DNA of 64,000 nucleotides from an uncultured Solirubrobacterales bacterium. Lineage in GTDB: Bacteria; Actinomycetota; Thermoleophilia; Solirubrobacterales; 70-9. Shown in pieces: positions 4,414 to 53,408 of the stretch. The position numbers were made by a program, and so were the translations under genes. The DNA lies in contig CAWJNX010000001.1 in the NCBI GenBank assembly GCA_963844395.1, positions 857,252-921,251 on the forward strand. The letters run 5' to 3'. Every line of letters begins with the position of its first letter. Within the stretch, counting starts at the first letter, position 1. The notes under the pieces are model-generated. The model saw nothing but the letters and a program-made list of their open reading frames with translations, made no database searches and was not told where the DNA came from.

Positions 4414-5106
4414 CTACTCCCCGCCGGAGCTGCCCGAGTCGCCGCCCTCGCCCTCGCCGCCCTCCTCGGCAGCCGGGGCCTCGCCCTCCTCGCCGACGAG
4501 CTCGGTCTCCTCCTCGACGGCGGGCTCGGGCTCTTCCTCGACGCGGGGCGGCGAGAGGGTTGCGATCGTTATCTCCTCCGGGTCGTCGGCGGCGAACTTG
4601 ACGCCCTCGGGGACGGTGAGGCTGGAGAGCTGCATCGTGTCGTTGATCTCCATTGCGGAGACGTCGGCGACGAGGCGCTCGGGGATCTCGGTCGGCAGCG
4701 CTTCGACGGTGATCTCGCGGGTGACGTGCTCGAGCACGCCGCCGCCTTTGACGCCGGGGGCGACCTCGGTCCCCTCCAGCTCGATCGCCACCTCGGCCTG
4801 GATCTCCTCGTCGAGCTTCACTTCCTGCAGGTCGATGTGCTCGAGGTTGCCGCGAAGCGGGTGCAGCTGCTGCTCCTTAACTACGACCGGAACGGCTTTC
4901 TTCCCCTCTAGCTCCAGGTCGAACAGCGCCTGGCCGCCGGCCAGCACGGTGCGCACGTCGCGGGCGCCCACCTGAAAGGGGCGGGCCTCCTTGCCGGCGC
5001 CGTAGACGACGCCCGGGACGACGCCCGAACGGCGCAGGCGACGGGAGCTGCGCGAGCCGAACTCCTCGCGAGGAGCGGCCACCAACTTTTCGCGTCCACG
5101 GGCCAT
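4414..5106 (-). CDS. rplY: 50S ribosomal protein L25 / general stress protein Ctc
   Basis: The N-terminus has RRLRRSGVVPGVVYG. It has the long acidic/Gly-rich tail typical of Ctc-type L25 and sits next to pth. Confidence 0.9.
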   Translation of the reverse strand: MARGREKLVAAPREEFGSRSSRRLRRSGVVPGVVYGAGKEARPFQVGARDVRTVLAGGQALFDLELEGKKAVPVVVKEQQLHPLRGNLEHIDLQEVKLDEEIQAEVAIELEGTEVAPGVKGGGVLEHVTREITVEALPTEIPERLVADVSAMEINDTMQLSSLTVPEGVKFAADDPEEITIATLSPPRVEEEPEPAVEEETELVGEEGEAPAAEEGGEGEGGDSGSSGGE

Positions 5107-5186
5107 CGGACGGGAGAGGATAGAGAACTAAGGGCAATTGCGATTGGCGCTGGGTTGTGCCTCGACGCGTGTGACAACCTTCCACC

Positions 5187-6638
5187 GTGAGCGACGATCC
5201 GAAGGACCCGAAGGACTCGAAGATCCCCAAGGGCCGGATCCGCCGCTCGGCGAAGCTCGGCTCGGTCGTCGGCGTGCAGGGCGCCCGCTACGCCGGCACC
5301 AAGGCGACCAACGTCGGCCGCTCCGAGGAGGGCGGCAGGGAGAAGCTCGAGCAGCGCCACCTGGAGACGGCGATGAAGATGGTCGGCACGCTTGGCCAGA
5401 TGAAGGGCGCGGCGATGAAGCTGGGTCAGTTCGCCTCCTTCATCGACACCGAGTTCCTCCCCGAGGAGTACAGCGAGATCTACCAGGAGCAGCTGGCGAA
5501 GCTGCGCACCTCGGCACCGCCGATGCCCTGGGAGAAGGTCGAGAAGGTGCTGCTCGAGGAGTACGACGGCGAACCGGTCTCCGAGCTGTTCGCCTCTTTC
5601 GAGCAGAAGGCCTTCGCCGCCGCCTCGATCGGCCAGGTGCACCGGGCCGAGCTGATCGACGGGCGCCGGGTCGCGGTCAAGATCCAGTACCCGGGGATCG
5701 CCGAGGCGCTCGACGCCGACTTGCGCAACGCCGGCATGCTGGTCCGCCTCGCCCGCGCTCTGGCACCCGGGCTCGACGCCAAGGCAATCGCCCACGAGAT
5801 CCGCGAGCGAGTGATGGAGGAGCTCGACTACGAGTACGAGGCGCAGAACCAGCGCAGCTTTGCCCGCGCCTACCGCGATCATCCCTTCGTCTACGTACCT
5901 GAAGTCGTCACCCGTCTCTCGCGCCGCCGCGTCCTCGTCACCGAGCTGGTCGAGGGGATCGGCTTCGAGGAGATCAAGGAGCTGCCGCACGAGGAGCGCA
6001 GCCGCTTCGGCGAGATCGTCTTCCGCGGCAACTTCGGCTCGATCTACCACCTGCAGCACTTCAACGCCGACCCCCATCCCGGCAACTACATCCTGATGGC
6101 GGACGGCCGCGTCGCCTTCCTCGACTTCGGCATGACCAAGAAGCTCGACCACGAGCAGATCGTGCTCGAGCAGCGGGCGATCGACGCCGCCTTCCACGAC
6201 GACCCGGAGGAGTTCCGGCGGGCGCTGCACGACCTCGGCTTCATCAAGAACCCCTCAAAGCTCGACGCCGAACGGCTGATGGAGCACACGATGGCGATCG
6301 GCGGCTGGTACATCGAGGACCGCGAGATCGAGATCACGCCGCGGCGAGTGATGAAGATCATCGAGTCGACCAACGACCCGCGCTCGGAGTACTACGACCT
6401 GATGCGGCGCGAGTCGATCCCGGCCGAGGAGCTGATGGGGCGGCGGATGGAAATCGGCGTCGTCGCCGTGCTCGGGCAGCTGCGGGCGAAGCGCAACTGG
6501 CACCGGATCATGCGCGAGTGGGTCTACGCAGACCCGCCTGCAACCGAGCTGGGCGAGCAGGAGTGGGAGTACTTCGAGGGAAGAGGCGTGATGCAGACCC
6601 CGATTGTGGAGCGGTCTTTGGAAGGAGATCAGCGATGA
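5187..6638 (+). CDS. ABC1/UbiB (AarF) family atypical kinase
   Basis: 483 aa with ...AAASIGQVHRAEL..GRRVAVKIQYPGI... and ...FNADPHPGNYIL..DGRVAFLDFGM..., which are ABC1 kinase motifs. Confidence 0.85.
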   Translation: MSDDPKDPKDSKIPKGRIRRSAKLGSVVGVQGARYAGTKATNVGRSEEGGREKLEQRHLETAMKMVGTLGQMKGAAMKLGQFASFIDTEFLPEEYSEIYQEQLAKLRTSAPPMPWEKVEKVLLEEYDGEPVSELFASFEQKAFAAASIGQVHRAELIDGRRVAVKIQYPGIAEALDADLRNAGMLVRLARALAPGLDAKAIAHEIRERVMEELDYEYEAQNQRSFARAYRDHPFVYVPEVVTRLSRRRVLVTELVEGIGFEEIKELPHEERSRFGEIVFRGNFGSIYHLQHFNADPHPGNYILMADGRVAFLDFGMTKKLDHEQIVLEQRAIDAAFHDDPEEFRRALHDLGFIKNPSKLDAERLMEHTMAIGGWYIEDREIEITPRRVMKIIESTNDPRSEYYDLMRRESIPAEELMGRRMEIGVVAVLGQLRAKRNWHRIMREWVYADPPATELGEQEWEYFEGRGVMQTPIVERSLEGDQR

Positions 6639-46401: not shown

Positions 46402-47576
46402 CGGTCGTCAAGGACAGTGGGCAGCGCGCCACCCTGCCGCCCTTCAACGAGGAGCACGAGGAGCTTCGCGAGACGGTGAGCCGCTTCGTCGCCAGGGAGA
46501 TCGCGCCCAACGTCAACGAGTGGGAGGCGGCGCGCGAATTCCCCCGCGAGCTGTATGGGCGCTGCGCCGAGGTCGGCTTCCTGGGCCTCAAGTTCCCCGA
46601 GGAGTACGGCGGCCAGGGCGGCACCCACCTGCACGACGCGGTATGGGTCGAGGAGCTGGCCCGCTCGGGCGGCTCGGGCGGCGTCGCCGCCGGCCTCAAT
46701 GCCCACACCTCGATCGCGCTGCCGCCGATCTTCAACTTCGGCACCGAGGAGCAGAGGCAGCGCTGGCTGGTGCCCGGGATCGCCGGCGAGAAGATCGGCG
46801 CGCTGGGGATCACCGAGCCGGGCGCCGGCTCCGACGTCGCCGGCATCTCCACCTTCGCCAAGCGGGTCGACGGCGGCTACGTCGTCAACGGCTCGAAGAC
46901 CTTCATCACCAACGGCGTCCGCGCCGACTTCCTCGTCTGCGCCTGCAAGACGACCCAGGAGGGCAGCCACCACGGCATCTCCTTCCTCGTCCTCGAGCGC
47001 GAGATGCCCGGCTACGAGGTGGCGCAGAAGCTGGAGAAGATGGGCTGGCACTCCTCCGACACGGGGGAGCTCGCTTTCACCGATGTAGAGGTCCCGGCCG
47101 AGAACTTGCTCGGGGTGGAGAACGAGGGCTTCAAGCAGATCATGGCCAACTTCGCCTGGGAGCGGCTGCTGATGGCGATCGGCGCGGTCGGCGCGATGCA
47201 GCGCCTGATCGAGATCAGCGTCTCCTACGCCCTCGACCGCGAAGCCTTCGGCCGCCCGATCGGCAAGTTCCAGGCGATCCGCCACCAGGTGGCGGAGATG
47301 GCGACCAAGGCCGAGGCCGCCCGCGCCCTCACCTACAACTCCCTGCGCCTCTTTCACGAGGGTCACGACTGCATCCGCGAGGTCACGATGGCCAAGCTCG
47401 TAACCCAGCGCGCCGTCCTGGAGATAGCCGACCAATCCCTACAGATCCACGGCGGCTACGGCTACATGCGTGAGTACGGCATAGAGCGAGCCGTCCGCGA
47501 CGCCCGCCTAGGCCCAATAGGCGGCGGCACCGACGAGATCATGAAGGAGATCCTCGGCAAGCAGATGGGGTTGTAG
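46398..47576 (+). CDS. Acyl-CoA dehydrogenase (its last 12 codons lie inside the attL repeat)
   Basis: It has ...GALGITEPGAGSDVAGIST... and ...QIHGGYGYMREYGIERAVRD...MKEILGKQMGL*. Confidence 0.9.
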   Translation: MTVVKDSGQRATLPPFNEEHEELRETVSRFVAREIAPNVNEWEAAREFPRELYGRCAEVGFLGLKFPEEYGGQGGTHLHDAVWVEELARSGGSGGVAAGLNAHTSIALPPIFNFGTEEQRQRWLVPGIAGEKIGALGITEPGAGSDVAGISTFAKRVDGGYVVNGSKTFITNGVRADFLVCACKTTQEGSHHGISFLVLEREMPGYEVAQKLEKMGWHSSDTGELAFTDVEVPAENLLGVENEGFKQIMANFAWERLLMAIGAVGAMQRLIEISVSYALDREAFGRPIGKFQAIRHQVAEMATKAEAARALTYNSLRLFHEGHDCIREVTMAKLVTQRAVLEIADQSLQIHGGYGYMREYGIERAVRDARLGPIGGGTDEIMKEILGKQMGL

Positions 47577-47584
47577 GGATTAGC
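47539..47584. repeat. attL core (46 bp)
   Basis: It is an exact duplicate of 53007-53052. It contains the ACAD codons MKEILGKQMGL plus the stop. Confidence 0.85.
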
Positions 47585-47621
47585 AGGGGTTTCCTGCGAA
47601 TCCTCCGCCTCGTCTGAGGCA

Positions 47622-47644
47622 GGCGGACACGATTCGGACACATC
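47622..47644. repeat. Candidate integrase arm-type site (left)
   Basis: ggcggacacgattcggacacatc matches tgcagacacaatccggacacatc at 52869-52891 at 19 of 23 positions, in the same orientation. Confidence 0.4.
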
Positions 47645-48755
47645 GCGCCGCGCCTGCTCGATCTGATCCTCGGCAGACACGCGCTCGGCGATGTCGAACT
47701 CATCGAAGACGTGTGCGTAGACGTCGAGCGTCATGGTCGGCGAGTGCCCGGCCTGCCGCGCGACCTCGACCACGCTGCGGCCTTCGTGGATCAGGAGCGA
47801 AACGAAGCTGTGGCGCAGGTCGTACGGGCGAGCCCCCTCCAAGCCGACGGCGCGACAGGCGGGTGCCCAGGCGTCACGGTGCCAGGTCTGCCAGGCCGGG
47901 TCGTTCCAGACGCCGCCTGAGCCGTTCGGGAACAGGAGCGCGCCATCGTCGGCCTGGTCAAGCGAGCGCCGCCACCCGGATAGGTCGTCGGCCAGCGGGG
48001 CCAGCAGGCGAACCGTCCGCGCCTGACCGGTCTTGGTCGTCTTGACGCCGCCCTGGCCGTCAGCGGCCTTCTCGACCAACAGCGTCCGCTCGCGCACATC
48101 GCCCCAGCGCAGCGCAAGCGCCTCCTGGGGGCGCAGCCCGGCGTAGGCGAGCAATCCGGACCAGCGCCGCATCCCGAGCGCCGTGCTTGCGCCTCTTGGC
48201 GGCGACAGCGCGCAGCTGCTCCACGGTAAGCGGCGACAGCGGTCGCACCTCTCGCTGCCTTCGGACCTTCGGCTTCTGCACTGCCTTGACCGGGTTGTGG
48301 CCGATCCGCCGCCACTCGACCGCTCGCCGCAGCACGCCCTGGAGAAGCGCAAGCGCCCGGTAGATGGTCGGCTGCCCCACCCCATCGGCTTCCAGCTCGG
48401 CCCGGAAGCGCTCGACAACCTCCGGCGTGATCGCGCTGAGGCGCATCGAGCCGAGCCGCGGCAAGACGTGTCGATCCCAAAGGCCCGCGTAGCTGCGAAG
48501 AGTGCGCGCCGCAAGGTTGGGAACCGCGTAGAGCTTCCACCACTCCTGCGCGAAGTCGGTGAGCGTTTCCCGCCCGCCCGTAAGCAAGTCCAGGTCACCG
48601 GTGCGCTTGCGCCGCACGACCTCGGCATCGAAGGCATCCGCGTCGCGCTTGCGGCCGACCACTTTCGAGCGAGCCCGCCCCTGCTCGTCGCGCCAGCGCA
48701 CCCGCCAAACGGCCCCGCCCTTCCGCTCAACCCGTTCGACGCTCATCCACCCCGC

Positions 48756-49040
48756 CTAGCCTTCCGCGCTCTCATCGAGCAGGACGCGCAGGCTGCCCTG
48801 CGCCCCAGCGGTTCGACCCCGAGATCGCCGAGGTGTTGACGGATCTGCTCCCCGCGTTTCCTCGGCGATCCACCGCTCCAGCTCTGCCGGATGCACGCGA
48901 AGCCGATGACAGAGTCGCGCCGCCCGCAGCTCTCCCCGAGCAATCGCCCGGTAGACCGCCCGACGCGAAAGCCCGCAAGCGCGGGCAACGTCCTCCGGCG
49001 ACAACATGGGCTCGATCTCGATGTGGTTCTCGTCGCGCAT
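48756..49040 (-). CDS. Excisionase-family / MerR-like HTH DNA-binding protein
   Basis: It has ...MLSPEDVARACGLSRRAVYRAIARGELRAARLCHRLRVHPAELERWI.... It lies 9 nt upstream of the integrase start. Alternative starts are at 49007, 49064 and 49133. Confidence 0.7.
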   Translation of the reverse strand: MRDENHIEIEPMLSPEDVARACGLSRRAVYRAIARGELRAARLCHRLRVHPAELERWIAEETRGADPSTPRRSRGRTAGAQGSLRVLLDESAEG

Positions 49041-49396: not shown

Positions 49397-49690
49397 TCAT
49401 TGCCTCGCCTCGGGCCGAGGCGGGAGCGTGAACGCTCCGGCCTGAGTGCTGCCGGCCTTCCAGACGATCCCGTCCAGCAGATCGCAAGGCGAGACTTCCA
49501 GGGCACCGGCGAGTTTGATCAGCGTGTCGATTCGGGGCACGCGAGTTCCCCGCTCCAGCAAGCTGATCTCCGTGCGATGGAGAGAGGCGCGGATGCCAAG
49601 CTCCTCCTGGCTGAGACTGGCTCGTTCTCGCGTATGGACGAGATTTGCAGCGAAACGTCGAGCCACCTCCATGGTCATTTGTCTCTCCAC
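49397..49690 (-). CDS. Xre (Cro/CI)-family HTH regulator
   Basis: It has ...LVHTRERASLSQEELGIRASLHRTEISLLERGTRVPRIDTLIKLAGAL. Confidence 0.85.
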   Translation of the reverse strand: MERQMTMEVARRFAANLVHTRERASLSQEELGIRASLHRTEISLLERGTRVPRIDTLIKLAGALEVSPCDLLDGIVWKAGSTQAGAFTLPPRPEARQ

Positions 49691-49971
49691 AGCCGCTCGA
49701 AATAGACCGCGGAGCGCGTCGGCATGACGAGGACTCCATTACTGCGCAGAAGGCCGACGGCCGTGAGGTCCCGCACGGCACGGGCGAGCGCATCGCCTTC
49801 CGCGAAGTCCTCGGGGTCCTCACAGACCTCGGCGGCAAGCTCGGGGAACGTGAGGTGGATCGGATGCAGCGAGAGGACGTGCCGTAGAACGGCGCGCTCG
49901 GTCCGTTCGTCTTCTTGGGCTGGGGTAAGCGGATCGCCTGAGCCGCGATCCGTAGGCTGGGAACAGGACAT
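49675..49971 (-). CDS. Hypothetical winged-helix-like protein co-transcribed with the Xre regulator
   Basis: 98 aa. ...ERAVLRHVLSLHPIHLTFPELAAEV...ARAVRDLTAVGLLRSNGVLVMPTRSAV. It overlaps the downstream xre by 16 nt. Confidence 0.6.
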   Translation of the reverse strand: MSCSQPTDRGSGDPLTPAQEDERTERAVLRHVLSLHPIHLTFPELAAEVCEDPEDFAEGDALARAVRDLTAVGLLRSNGVLVMPTRSAVYFERLWRDK

Positions 49972-50225
49972 GGGAGCTGAACCCCCTGCGTCTCAGGCGG
50001 CCCGTCGTGTTTGCGCACGGCGGGTCGCCGCTTCTTGGAGCCGGCAGGTCGATACCGTTCCCGCTGCGGCCGGCCTGGTGAGAGCTATGCCGGTCGCCAC
50101 GGGGCCGGTGTTCACGCACGCGGCCCCACTTATGTCCCGCAGAGCCTAGCAAAGCCTGCGTACATGTTTGTAGAGCGATGTATGCAGCAGCCTTTAGCGC
50201 TGACGCTTCTGAGAACGTGCAGCCG

Positions 50226-50462
50226 ATGCGCCGCTCAGAGCGACCTCAACCTGCCCTTGGCGAGGCCGTTCGCCAGCTTCGTGAGAAGCGCGGCGCAACC
50301 CAGGAGGCCATCGCCCGCGACGCCGGCATCACGACCGCCACCCTCTCCCTGATCGAGCGCGGCCAGGCCAACCCGACCTGGGACACCATGAAGAAGATCG
50401 CCGCCTCTCTCGGCTCCTCCATGGGAGAGCTAGGCAAGCTCACTGATGGCCTCGAGAACTGA
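50226..50462 (+). CDS. Xre-family HTH regulator (divergent partner of 49397-49971)
   Basis: The internal ATG gives MRRSERPQPALGEAVRQLREKRGATQEAIARDAGITTATLSLIERGQANPTWDTMKKIAASLG. Confidence 0.8.
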   Translation: MRRSERPQPALGEAVRQLREKRGATQEAIARDAGITTATLSLIERGQANPTWDTMKKIAASLGSSMGELGKLTDGLEN

Positions 50463-50565
50463 GCGGACCGCTGGTGGGAGTACGAGCGGGTAGGCCAGAT
50501 TTGGGAAAGGAGGCGGAATCATTTGGTTCCGCCGCGACATCGGTCAAGATACGTATGGGATTTCG

Positions 50566-51063
50566 ATGGATGAGAAAACTTTCAAAGAACTAGCCGGCCG
50601 CTTGAAAAAGGCGAGCGTTGTGATCGAGAAGCTCGACCCGGTTATCCGAGAGGACGCGTGGAAGATGTTGCGCCCATTTGTCAGACCCGACGCGAAGGAT
50701 TCAGGGTCGATCCGCTCGGAGAACGGAGGCGCTGGCGGCGAAGGACCTCCGCCGCCGGATTCGAGCGAGGACGACTTGATCGAGAAGTTCGAGAGCGAGA
50801 AAGAGGCGGAGAACCTTTATCTGACCCTCGCCATTCTCTACAAGCGTCATGGAAAGGGGCCATTCTCTCTGGACGTGATCCGCGCCGCAGGGACGTCACT
50901 CAATCTTTCGCTGCCTGAGCGGCCCGACACGACCCTAAGGAACAGCACGAGAAAAGTCGTGCGTAAACAGGGGAACGGCTACAAGGTTCAGCCTGGTGGC
51001 GAAAAGTGGCTCAAAGAGAAATATGGAGTCGCTAAGGGCAAGCAGCCTATCTCGGATGACTAG
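50566..51063 (+). CDS. Hypothetical protein P1: N-terminal helical segment, Gly/Pro/acidic linker, wHTH-like C-terminus
   Basis: 165 aa and A/T-richer than the surroundings. The C-terminus LYLTLAILYKRHGKGPFSLDVIRAAG...VVRKQGNGYKVQPGGEKWL resembles the N-terminus of P2. Confidence 0.65.
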   Translation: MDEKTFKELAGRLKKASVVIEKLDPVIREDAWKMLRPFVRPDAKDSGSIRSENGGAGGEGPPPPDSSEDDLIEKFESEKEAENLYLTLAILYKRHGKGPFSLDVIRAAGTSLNLSLPERPDTTLRNSTRKVVRKQGNGYKVQPGGEKWLKEKYGVAKGKQPISDD

Positions 51064-51797
51064 TGACGCTTGCGGAGTTCTTGCATCCGACGCGGCGTAG
51101 CTCGAAGCGAGAGCAGATTCTTGCCACGCTCTTTTACTTCAAACATCATGCTGGCCGAGATGACGCGACTGTCCGCGAAATTCGAGAGGGCTTGGTCCAA
51201 GCGAATATCCCTCGCTCTCGCAAAGCAAACTTGAGCGACGCCTTGGCTGGTGCAATCCCGCTTGTAGACAAATTGGGCGGTGGGCATTGGCGGATCACCA
51301 AAAGCGGTGAAGATCATGTCCGCGAGGAGCTGGCCCTTCCGGACGAACTGCCGCAAGTTCAAGAGGACGTAAGCACGCTGCTGCATTTGTCCCGCTCACT
51401 CGCCGACGAAACGGTGCAAGAGTATGTAGATGAGGCAATTAAATGCCTTCAGGCCGGAGCCAGACGTGCTGCCGTCGTATTCCTATGGAGCGGCGCGGTT
51501 CATGAGATGCGTGAGCGCGTATGGAACAACGGCAAGCGACAGATTGAGGAAGCCCTTCAGCAGCGGAATCCGAAGGCTCGATTCCGACGGAAGGACGACT
51601 TTTCAGTCGTGAAGGACAGCGCCCTCATTGAGCTCACCGGCGATTTTTCGATTTTCGACAAGTCGCAGAGGAAGCGATTGGCTGAGGGTCTCGACCTCCG
51701 AAACGATTGTGGGCATCCGGTGAAGTATCGGCCTCGTGAGAAGAAGGTATCGAGCTTCATCGAGGACGTTCTGCAGGTGGTGTTTGACGCAACCTGA
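51063..51797 (+). CDS. Hypothetical protein P2: wHTH N-terminal domain + HEPN-like C-terminal domain (R213-NDCG-H218)
   Basis: The GTG start overlaps the P1 stop (TAGTG). The C-terminal half is ...AIKCLQAGARRAAVVFLWSGAVHEM...LAEGLDLRNDCGHP..., a helical bundle with an Rx4H motif at nt 51699-51716. Confidence 0.65.
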   Translation: MTLAEFLHPTRRSSKREQILATLFYFKHHAGRDDATVREIREGLVQANIPRSRKANLSDALAGAIPLVDKLGGGHWRITKSGEDHVREELALPDELPQVQEDVSTLLHLSRSLADETVQEYVDEAIKCLQAGARRAAVVFLWSGAVHEMRERVWNNGKRQIEEALQQRNPKARFRRKDDFSVVKDSALIELTGDFSIFDKSQRKRLAEGLDLRNDCGHPVKYRPREKKVSSFIEDVLQVVFDAT

Positions 51798-51836
51798 GGG
51801 AACTTGCTTGACAGAGAAACGAGGCGGGGCCGGCGT

Positions 51837-52007
51837 TTAGCCGGACCCGTTGGTCCTCTGGCCGAGCCTCGTGACGTCGCTCGCCTGGCCCTCGCGGAGA
51901 CGACGCTTAACGCGCTTGGCGTACTCCTCCGGGGAAATCTCCTCCCGGAGCAGGCGGAGATACTCCTCGGAGGGGCCGGTGGGTACTGCGCCGCCGTTCG
52001 TTGCCAT
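51837..52007 (-). CDS. Small basic helical protein downstream of the GAF gene (hypothetical)
   Basis: The sequence is MATNGGAVPTGPSEEYLRLLREEISPEEYAKRVKRRLREGQASDVTRLGQRTNGSG. It lies 48 nt after the GAF gene stop on the same strand. Confidence 0.35.
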   Translation of the reverse strand: MATNGGAVPTGPSEEYLRLLREEISPEEYAKRVKRRLREGQASDVTRLGQRTNGSG

Positions 52008-52055
52008 TGTCCTTCGCCTTTCCGTTCCTGGTCTCGCCATAAGGACCTCCAGAGT

Positions 52056-52814
52056 CTAGTGCTCGCCCCCGTCGTCATCTGATGTCGGCCTCGCCAAGCT
52101 CCAGACGACGCCGATTATCGAGCCGAGAACGTCGATGTACATCAGCTCTGATGGGAGAAACGCGTGCTTCTTCGTAGACAGAACGCTCAAGATCGCGACG
52201 ATCTCGCTCCCCACCCGCACCGGCGCGCATGCCAGAGAGCCATACTCCCGGCCGGGGCGTGCCTGCGGATGGGGTGTCCACCGCGGGTCTGCCTCGACGT
52301 CGTTCGTCCATAGCATCTCGCCGCCGACGAGCACGTGACCAGCGAAGGAACCTGTAGTCGGAAGCTCGAACTTTTGGCGGGCCTCCAGCGAATGTCCAGC
52401 CTCGAACAACATCGAGAAGCGGCCGCCTTCAGGCAGGAGCACCGAGAGCCGGATCTCCTCTCCTTTGCGCTTGGGCGCCACGAGCCACTGTCGGGCGGGA
52501 ACGAGAATCCCCCGCTCGATGAATGCCTCGGCGCTGACGCCGGGGATATCGCCGGTGACGATCTTCTGGAGCGCTTCGAGAATCTCGCGGACATGGTCAA
52601 CGTAGAACGGCTCAAGGTTCTCTCCGGCCTCCGCGATCCTGCCGGCAATGAATGCGACTGGGAGGAAAATAGCCACGGCGATAAGAACCCAAAGGGGAAC
52701 TGGCGCATCGAGGATGCCGGTAGCGAGAGATAGCAGCGTGATGACGCCACCGACAATCAGAGCCAGGATCACACCCCGGGCGATCTCACTAGGCGATGGA
52801 AGCACGGACGGCAT
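52056..52814 (-). CDS. Membrane-anchored GAF-domain protein (2 TM + GAF, no output domain)
   Basis: The N-terminus has GVILALIVGGVITLLSL / LWVLIAVAIFLPVAFIAG. A GAF-like fold follows: ...SFAGHVLVGGEMLWTNDVEADPRW...GSLACAPVRVGSEIVAILSVLS. Confidence 0.7.
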   Translation of the reverse strand: MPSVLPSPSEIARGVILALIVGGVITLLSLATGILDAPVPLWVLIAVAIFLPVAFIAGRIAEAGENLEPFYVDHVREILEALQKIVTGDIPGVSAEAFIERGILVPARQWLVAPKRKGEEIRLSVLLPEGGRFSMLFEAGHSLEARQKFELPTTGSFAGHVLVGGEMLWTNDVEADPRWTPHPQARPGREYGSLACAPVRVGSEIVAILSVLSTKKHAFLPSELMYIDVLGSIIGVVWSLARPTSDDDGGEH

Positions 52815-53006: not shown

Positions 53007-53052
53007 TCATGAAGGAGATCCTCGGCAAGCAGATGGGGTTGTAGGGATTAGC
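53007..53052. repeat. attR core (46 bp)
   Basis: It is an exact duplicate of 47539-47584. Confidence 0.85.
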
Positions 53053-53054
53053 GG

Positions 53055-53408
53055 GTGTTCGCACGCGGCCATCAACCAGCCCTCGGCGACGCCGTCCGCC
53101 TGCTCCGCGAGAAGCGCGGCATGACCCAGGAAGCCGTAGCCCAGGCCGCCGGCATCACGACCGCCACCCACTCCCTGATCGAGCGGGGCCTAGCCAAGCC
53201 AACCTGGGACACCGTCAAGAAGATCGCCGCCGCCCTTGGCTCGTCGATGGGCGAGCCAGGCAAGCTCACTGACGACAAGCTCGACACCGGCTGCGCGCCG
53301 ACGTCGCGCAGACGGTTACCCGAAAACAGCTACGCGACCTGGACTGTCTTGTGGCCGGCTTCTTCGCGCAGGTTGAACTTCTCCCGTGGCCGACCGGACG
53401 GGGTGTAG
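53055..53408 (+). CDS. Xre-family HTH paralog abutting attR (probably 5'-truncated, with a 3' extension)
   Basis: The GTG lies 3 nt after the att core. By hand count, nt 53070-53276 versus 50244-50450 match at 173 of 207 positions. The tail runs 79 nt into the convergent DUF2188 gene. Confidence 0.6.
   Translation: MFARGHQPALGDAVRLLREKRGMTQEAVAQAAGITTATHSLIERGLAKPTWDTVKKIAAALGSSMGEPGKLTDDKLDTGCAPTSRRRLPENSYATWTVLWPASSRRLNFSRGRPDGV

Follow-up and report, generated by a model that had tools for sequence, protein, structure and literature searches.

The gene pair P1-P2 is carried by an integrative element of an uncultured Solirubrobacterales bacterium (Bacteria; Actinomycetota; Thermoleophilia; Solirubrobacterales; 70-9), within a stretch of 64,000 nucleotides (assembly GCA_963844395.1, contig CAWJNX010000001.1, positions 857,252 to 921,251, forward strand) that is referred to here as the window. 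P1 (50566-51063, + strand) encodes a partner protein of 165 aa. P2 (51063-51797, +) encodes a protein of 244 aa, in which an N-terminal winged helix (aa 1-95, 51063-51347, +), assigned from an AlphaFold2 (AF2) model, Foldseek and hhalign, precedes a predicted C-terminal HEPN domain of the DARNA/PD-T7-3 type (aa 97-244, stop included, 51351-51797, +; Pfam PF27235 'AF_1680'). The latter contains the sequence RNDCGH (51699-51716, +), the predicted catalytic R213-x4-H218 HEPN motif, recognized by its conservation and by alignment with the protein Dandelion. We regard the pair as a real, uncharacterised variant of the HEPN toxin/abortive-infection theme.

On the upstream side of P1, at a distance of 103 nt, lies xre (50178-50462, +, with an alternative start at 50226), which encodes an Xre-type helix-turn-helix (HTH) regulator of 94 aa when counted from the ATG at 50178 (Pfam HTH_3, E 2.8e-13). 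A first-pass annotation, made from the sequence alone, had drawn the three genes as a single operon with translational coupling of P1 to P2, and had located the arginine and histidine codons of the motif. Read directly from the sequence, the positions of the three open reading frames (ORFs) and of both codons (CGA at 51699-51701 for R213, CAT at 51714-51716 for H218) are as it gave them, and the coupling is borne out by G51063, the base common to the P1 stop codon TAG (51061-51063) and the P2 start codon GTG (51063-51065), which makes a 1-nt overlap. A scan of 49900-52200 for sigma-70 promoters and intrinsic terminators was uninformative for an organism of such high GC content.

P1-P2 is the conserved unit

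P2 belongs to a large family, represented by 193 homologs at E ≤ 1e-3 in a word-indexed search and by 2031 representatives of 50%-identity clusters in an exhaustive search. Gene order was scanned in 39 loci from species-representative genomes and in the contigs fetched for homologs. In most full-length loci, the gene directly preceding the P2 homolog matches the P1 hidden Markov model (HMM), the two genes usually overlapping by 4 nt. The remaining loci harbour other upstream proteins of ~200 aa that share the same layout, the N-terminus being structured, the linker of low complexity and the C-terminus winged-helix-like. The contigs of the P1 homologs (n=15) match those of P2 homologs in length. 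A lack of co-conservation had been named beforehand as a possible refutation; P1 and P2 are co-conserved, and the gene just upstream of P2 homologs encodes a partner of P1 type or of similar build. The resulting arrangement is the generic one of type II toxin–antitoxin (TA) modules, namely two small co-directional genes, regulator first, that are translationally coupled and co-inherited.

The third gene of the operon as first drawn does not belong to this unit. An xre-like gene is present upstream on the same strand in 2 of the 41 related loci only, so that the conserved unit is P1-P2 and not xre-P1-P2, and xre, having been considered as part of the module, was rejected on this count and assigned to the island family (compare locus L051). 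In some loci (L010 4962-5483, L026 4510-5013 and L033 4998-5492), the partner is preceded by a third gene that has a weak match to the profile of P2 (and to that of P1). On sequence grounds, it may be a further winged-helix paralog, and three-gene versions of the module may exist.

P2 combines a winged helix with a HEPN domain

The AF2 model of P2 (mean predicted local distance difference test score (pLDDT) 87.7) has two parts. The N-terminal winged helix (aa 1-90) is modelled at pLDDT 86-96 and is matched by Foldseek to MarR, IdeR and forkhead, and the C-terminal domain (aa 97-240) is all-helical, in agreement with the first reading of this half of the protein. Aligned over 27 homologs with identities as low as 42%, the residues R213, N214, H218 and P219 show no variation, and neither do E124, C128, L129, R135, A136, W142 and G144. 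Poor conservation of R213 and H218 had been named beforehand as a possible refutation of the HEPN assignment; neither residue varies in this set.

A broad profile of the helical domain was built from 18 sequences drawn from four architectures, in all of which the motif RN.C.HP is invariant. Against the PDB, this profile matched only the HEPN fragment of Dandelion (Dandelion-hepn, 9wx2_A, E 4.3e-7) and full-length Dandelion (9wxf_A, E 2.6e-6), in an alignment that spans ~120 residues and sets lRNkCgHP over hRHLSAHP, with the two R-x4-H motifs in register. The HEPN prediction of the first-pass annotation is upheld by this search. The fragment 9wx2_A matches the PADLOC model of PD-T7-3 at E 5e-62, and the N-terminus of the same model matches all of the family members compared with it (27/27, best E 2e-7), the match of the P2 of the window being restricted to model positions 8-49 of 432. 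Positions 9-156 of the profile phrog_27609 match residues 95-243 of P2 (E 1e-13).

The assignment of the helical domain to HEPN draws on four independent lines, of which three are the PD-T7-3, phrog_27609 and Dandelion matches. The fourth, a weak one, comes from Foldseek, whose top PDB matches for the helical half of P2 are HepT HEPN toxins (7bxo, 6m6w, 7ae9 and 5yep, E 0.4-1.3). Foldseek also retrieved 2q00_B, which we take to be a HEPN-fold protein, with a probability of 0.96 and a TMt of 0.70; the E-values of the top matches are weak (0.4-1.4) because the query, the full-length P2 model, had two domains. That model gave no Foldseek match at E ≤ 0.001 in the PDB or BFVD, and the viral library yielded generic winged helices only. 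Scans of local Pfam and NCBIfam libraries returned nothing credible for P2, the sub-threshold matches to NTF2, DUF7426 and MobA being taken as chance; there was no significant sequence match to the DUF86/HEPN models of Pfam, and a single-sequence phmmer search of the PDB gave one chance match, to a cystatin (E 1.2).

Precomputed annotation on an identical 244-aa protein and on all 120 homologs listed places PF27235 'AF_1680' on them. The HEPN domain is thus not without a place among described families; it belongs to a new Pfam entry, and its nearest characterised relative is, judging from the profile comparisons, DARNA/PD-T7-3. These comparisons identify the C-terminal domain of P2 as a HEPN domain of that type.

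In one metagenomic homolog, P0183 (354 aa), a C-terminal domain of P1 type appears to be fused to a protein of P2 type. Its motif has decayed to LLNRCGHS, and the homolog is probably a degraded or mis-assembled copy.

P1 and P2 share a winged helix

In the AF2 model of P1 (mean pLDDT 74.6), aa 3-39 form a helical hairpin, aa 41-60 a disordered linker of low complexity and aa 68-153 a basic winged helix, the C-terminal domain being modelled at pLDDT 81-89. Neither P1 alone nor its family set of 17 has a match in Pfam, NCBIfam, PADLOC or PHROGs, and Foldseek gave weak, generic winged-helix matches only. The initial statement that P1 is not a minimal nucleotidyltransferase agrees with both the lack of a family match and the modelled hairpin, linker and winged helix.

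The C-terminus of P1 and the N-terminus of P2 had been described as paralogous winged helices, and in the AF2 models of the two proteins, helices and strands follow one another in the same order in P1 aa 68-153 and in the N-terminus of P2. The direct profile comparison is weak, with hhalign aligning P1 84-158 and P2 18-95 at E 1e-3 and a probability of 22%. The paralogy is clearer from a more distant class of partners, type C. These are collinear with P1 from end to end (E 4e-5, probability 70%), and in their C-terminal domain they align with the initial 50 residues of P2 (E 4e-6, probability 87%). It is with the help of this intermediate class that the paralogy first suspected now stands. We propose that P1 is a regulator of P2, either an antitoxin or a co-sensor.

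Other architectures of the HEPN clade

The RN.C.HP motif is also kept outside the P1-P2 arrangement, in tyrosine-integrase fusions, in a protein with SAP, winged-helix and HEPN modules, and in standalone HEPN proteins. The integrase fusions are numerous proteins of ~430 aa in which an N-terminal tyrosine integrase (Phage_int_SAM_4 and Phage_integrase) is followed by a HEPN domain with RN.CGHP intact (for example P0196, P0200, P0234, P0185 and P0229, and locus L041 2931-4223); no description of such fusions was found in the searchable literature.

The standalone proteins (150-200 aa) are preceded, with an overlap, by a gene for a DUF5343 protein, at L011 1869-3013 and in L043 and L045-L050 (about 5000-6500), in Microbacterium, Kribbella, Microlunatus, Paenarthrobacter and Pseudarthrobacter. 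DUF5343 was tested as a relative of P1 or of the P2 winged helix and is not detectably related. As far as sequence comparison can tell, the DUF5343 and standalone HEPN genes form a second conserved two-gene arrangement, with a partner unrelated to P1. In its RN..H region, one standalone member gave matches below threshold, to DUF4145 at E 0.004 and to Abi_2 at E 0.06. The HEPN clade is recurrently linked to DNA-binding modules, be it a winged helix, SAP with a winged helix or a tyrosine integrase, which parallels the nucleic-acid-sensing domain of DARNA; with DARNA counted in, the association is one with nucleic-acid-binding modules.

Hosts and genomic neighbourhoods

The family is found mostly in soil Actinomycetota, the closest relatives (70% identity) being encoded by Solirubrobacterales metagenome-assembled genomes, and also in Acidobacteriota, Chloroflexota, Nitrospinaceae and Vulcanimicrobiota. 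Among the carriers in culture are Cellulomonas telluris CPCC 204705 and Kribbella pittospori NRRL B-24813. The neighbourhoods of homologs comprise a prophage-like region that encodes a serine recombinase together with an S78 protease and a DUF5906 primase; a cluster of SIR2-HerA, HNH and PIN genes; a region with IS21, an SNF2/NOV_C helicase, NYN and a DUF1156 protein; a site with AbiEi/AbiEii, an integrase and an M78 peptidase; and one with a relaxase and a serine recombinase. Some homologs lie in ordinary chromosomal settings.

The mobile element and its other cargo

In the window, P1 and P2 are located inside an integrative element of 5.5 kb, as the first-pass annotation had held, and the evidence for this consists of attachment (att) repeats, a tyrosine integrase and an excisionase-like HTH protein. 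The element is flanked by 53-nt direct repeats that are 96% identical. The left one, attL (47539-47591), is the 3′ end of an acyl-CoA dehydrogenase gene, and this gene end is duplicated in the right one, attR (53007-53059), which carries the second copy of the coding end ...MKEILGKQMGL. A 39-nt core of the repeat occurs exactly twice in the window, where 0 copies are expected, and a third att copy was not found there. The three island genes had also been described as visibly more A/T-rich than the chromosome, and measurement shows a GC content of 0.55-0.59 over 50400-51800, compared with 0.65-0.73 in the flanking chromosome and in the island's own integrase.

The integrase is encoded on the − strand (47462-48746) in two reading frames, with a SAM-like N-terminal domain (E 8.7e-11) and a Phage_integrase catalytic domain (E 1.4e-12) in separate frames. 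The switch lies near 48160-48180, where '...GARDAALV' is read in one frame and 'SGLLAYAGLRPQEALALRWG...' in the next. Either the split integrase is a pseudogene, and the element is immobilised, or the split results from a 1-nt assembly error. The adjacent excisionase-like HTH protein (48756-49040, −, with the start judged by eye) matches phrog_66, 'excisionase and transcriptional regulator' (E 3.4e-10).

A second copy of xre (53072-53272, in an ORF at 53055-53408, +) is 85% identical over 201 nt to the island xre (50246-50446). It starts 13 nt past attR, outside the element, and may be what is left of an earlier, related element that occupied this site.

Two further groups of genes are found on the element. 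At 49397-49971 (−), a divergent pair consists of an ORF of 98 aa, for which no family match was found, overlapping by 16 nt a gene for an Xre-type HTH protein of 97 aa. The same pair (97 aa and HTH_31) adjoins xre, partner and P2 in locus L051, and the pair is therefore attributed to the island family, possibly as a second small pair of TA-like or regulatory character. The remaining cargo (51837-52814, −), convergent with P2, consists of an ORF of 67 aa, for which no matches were obtained, and a GAF-domain protein of 252 aa (GAF_2, E 1.5e-10), which by eye appears hydrophobic at its N-terminus. Both also occur on an identical metagenomic contig.

A candidate conflict module

In prokaryotic immunity and in TA biology, HEPN RNases rank among the main classes of effector, and the ways in which individual enzymes are restrained and activated have, to our knowledge, been described for a minority of them. 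The analysis of P1-P2 establishes the identities of the domains, the conservation of the motif, homology to a validated HEPN enzyme, the pairing and coupling of the genes and their occurrence in mobile-element and defence-island contexts. Most likely, the pair is a toxin or phage-defence module that is itself uncharacterised but belongs to a familiar general kind. More specifically, we consider it reasonably probable that the effector is P2, acting as a HEPN endoribonuclease, that P1 is its cognate regulator, produced in a fixed ratio through translational coupling, and that the two constitute a self-contained conflict module.

The pair is carried as low-GC cargo on the integrase/excisionase element inserted in the 3′ end of the acyl-CoA dehydrogenase gene. 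In the mechanism proposed for such a module, P1 would bind P2, winged helix to winged helix or over the HEPN cleft, and thereby hold it inactive. The loss of P1, or a nucleic-acid or protein cue from a phage or from loss of the element, would free or activate the HEPN dimer, a cue derived from infection possibly being read by the winged helices. The active site would be composite and would require dimerisation of HEPN domains; in HepT, Csm6 and DARNA, the sites lie across the dimer interface (bioRxiv 10.64898/2026.02.22.705581). The active dimer would then cut cellular RNA, likely tRNA by analogy with DARNA, and the cleavage would lead to growth arrest and, through it, to abortive infection, stabilisation of the element or both.

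Several points weigh against this reading. RNase activity, toxicity, a defence function, P1-P2 binding and the trigger are each inferred from sequence and by analogy. The structural support obtained with the full-length model for a HEPN fold is weak (best Foldseek E 0.37), and the direct similarity between the P1 and P2 winged helices is marginal at the hhalign probability of 22%. P1 may be an inhibitor, a co-sensor or an obligatory subunit of P2. The association with defence islands is drawn from about nine inspected neighbourhoods and is not a statistical enrichment. Searches with tblastn found no homolog of P2 in phage genomes and, in plasmids, only weak matches to the HEPN region (27% identical) on Ralstonia megaplasmids, without listed annotation.

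The main rival is a plain type II TA addiction system, in which a labile DNA-binding antitoxin, P1, would autoregulate the operon and neutralise the RNase P2, stabilising the element with no sensing of phage. The antitoxin-first order and the stop/start overlap speak for it, as do the disordered segment and basic winged helix of P1, which are typical of type II antitoxins, and the location of the pair on integrative or mobilisable elements. We nevertheless judge it rather unlikely as the whole explanation, since simple toxins do not usually carry a winged helix of their own, paralogous to that of the partner, the nearest characterised relative is a defence protein activated by infection, and several homologs lie beside defence genes, away from element cores. 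Addiction and abortive infection can coexist. A role in the life cycle of the element is a more distant alternative, which we hold to be improbable. Here, the AF_1680-type domain would work with DNA-bound recombination or regulatory complexes, for instance in processing of element RNA or control of excision, and not as a toxin. The HEPN clade forms the C-terminus of many tyrosine-integrase proteins of ~430 aa, is also fused to SAP and winged-helix modules, and is present in the window on a minimal integrase/excisionase element, all of which such a role would accommodate. Many P1-P2 pairs, however, have no recombinase in the inspected flanks, an RNase motif conserved so strictly is consistent with a nuclease, and the fusions might just as well be addiction devices. 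Prokaryotic HEPN nucleases are, moreover, overwhelmingly conflict effectors (Anantharaman et al. 2013, PMC3710099), which also counts against a life-cycle role.

Least probable of all, and given very little weight here, is that P2 is a FadR/GntR-like transcription factor, with a winged helix and a helical ligand-binding domain in which R-x4-H would be a ligand contact. Such factors have a similar overall layout, the FadR entries 5dv5_A and 1h9g are among the weak Foldseek matches, and one homolog, P0099, is annotated by its source as a MarR-family regulator. Yet the FadR matches have a probability of 0.14 and a root-mean-square deviation of 17 A, whereas the helical domain is significantly homologous in sequence to a HEPN RNase that has been validated, the catalytic motifs of the two being in register, and the same domain occurs standalone and on integrases, without a winged helix.

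Beyond the reading of P1-P2 as a HEPN effector with its cognate regulator, a broader possibility, which we put forward tentatively, is that P1-P2 stands for a widespread class of HEPN immunity modules, as yet unnamed, that sense nucleic acids and in which a duplicated winged helix, one copy in the sensor/regulator and one in the RNase, would couple the recognition of foreign or aberrant DNA to the activation of a DARNA-type tRNA nuclease. If this is true, the grafts of the nuclease onto tyrosine recombinases, SAP proteins and DUF5343 partners would represent a general 'DNA-state sensor to RNase' design, and mobile elements would also use that design, possibly tying integration or excision to the control of host growth. 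The paralogous winged helices in regulator and effector suggest a regulatory logic that has not yet been described for HEPN systems. The sequence link to DARNA provides a testable hypothesis, in which tRNA cleavage would be triggered via the fused nucleic-acid-binding module, and the existence of cultured carriers makes experiments feasible. The family is large, its partner belongs to no known family, and it is missing from PADLOC-DB v2. If P1-P2 is merely another TA pair, the gain is a modest one, that of one more annotated family. Specialists will expect more HEPN modules to exist; what merits experiment is that the winged helix is duplicated, that the partner falls in no known family, that the family is so large and that integrase fusions occur.

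Comparison with known systems

The first-pass annotation had been unable to place the pair in any named system, and this assessment holds for PADLOC-DB v2, NCBIfam and local Pfam, none of which has a named system that the pair matches. In PADLOC-DB v2.0.0, no system is matched over its full length, with P1 giving no match and P2 the partial PD-T7-3 match only, and no paper on the P1-P2 family was found in the literature. PF27235 'AF_1680' covers P2, its listed homologs and the standalone HEPN proteins beside DUF5343 genes. It is a domain family only, named for the locus tag of an uncharacterised Archaeoglobus protein, and the searched literature attaches no function, partner or system to it.

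HepT-MntA (HEPN/MNT, type VII TA) resembles P1-P2 in having two genes, a small HEPN RNase toxin and R-x4-H chemistry. It differs in that P1 has a winged-helix fold and, like its 16 relatives, no nucleotidyltransferase match, and in that P2 has an additional winged helix. Since a minimal nucleotidyltransferase is lacking as partner, P2 is not expected to be neutralised by AMPylation. Proteins of the AbiJ/Abi2/Swt1/DUF4145 type reportedly combine an N-terminal putative DNA-binding domain with a C-terminal HEPN domain, and P2 has this same order. No member of the P2 family, however, reaches the Pfam thresholds of these families. Most of the systems concerned consist of a single gene or rely on an RNA antitoxin, and a partner with a paralogous winged helix is not known from any of them.

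The closest comparison is with PD-T7-3, since renamed DARNA and represented in the PDB by Dandelion (9wx2/9wxf), a single-protein tRNA anticodon nuclease of Escherichia coli that acts by abortive infection (bioRxiv 10.64898/2026.02.22.705581). Its N-terminal HEPN domain carries R117x4H122, and the H122A substitution abolishes cleavage; the protein is a dodecamer whose HEPN dimers have an occluded active site, and it is switched on by single-stranded DNA (ssDNA) bound through a C-terminal Pds5-like domain (bioRxiv 10.64898/2026.02.22.705581). In contrast, the HEPN domain is C-terminal in P2, a protein of 244 aa compared with about 456 aa (430-460) for DARNA, and P2 has a winged helix and no Pds5-like ssDNA-binding domain. 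DARNA is encoded by a single gene, whereas P2 is always accompanied by a separate partner gene. Because the domain order is reversed, the Pds5-like domain is missing, a partner gene is present and the PADLOC match is partial, P2 is considered a domain relative of DARNA and not a member of the DARNA system. What the two have in common are homologous HEPN domains (E 4.3e-7 over ~120 residues) with R-x4-H aligned, the joining of HEPN to a nucleic-acid-binding module, and defence or mobile contexts.

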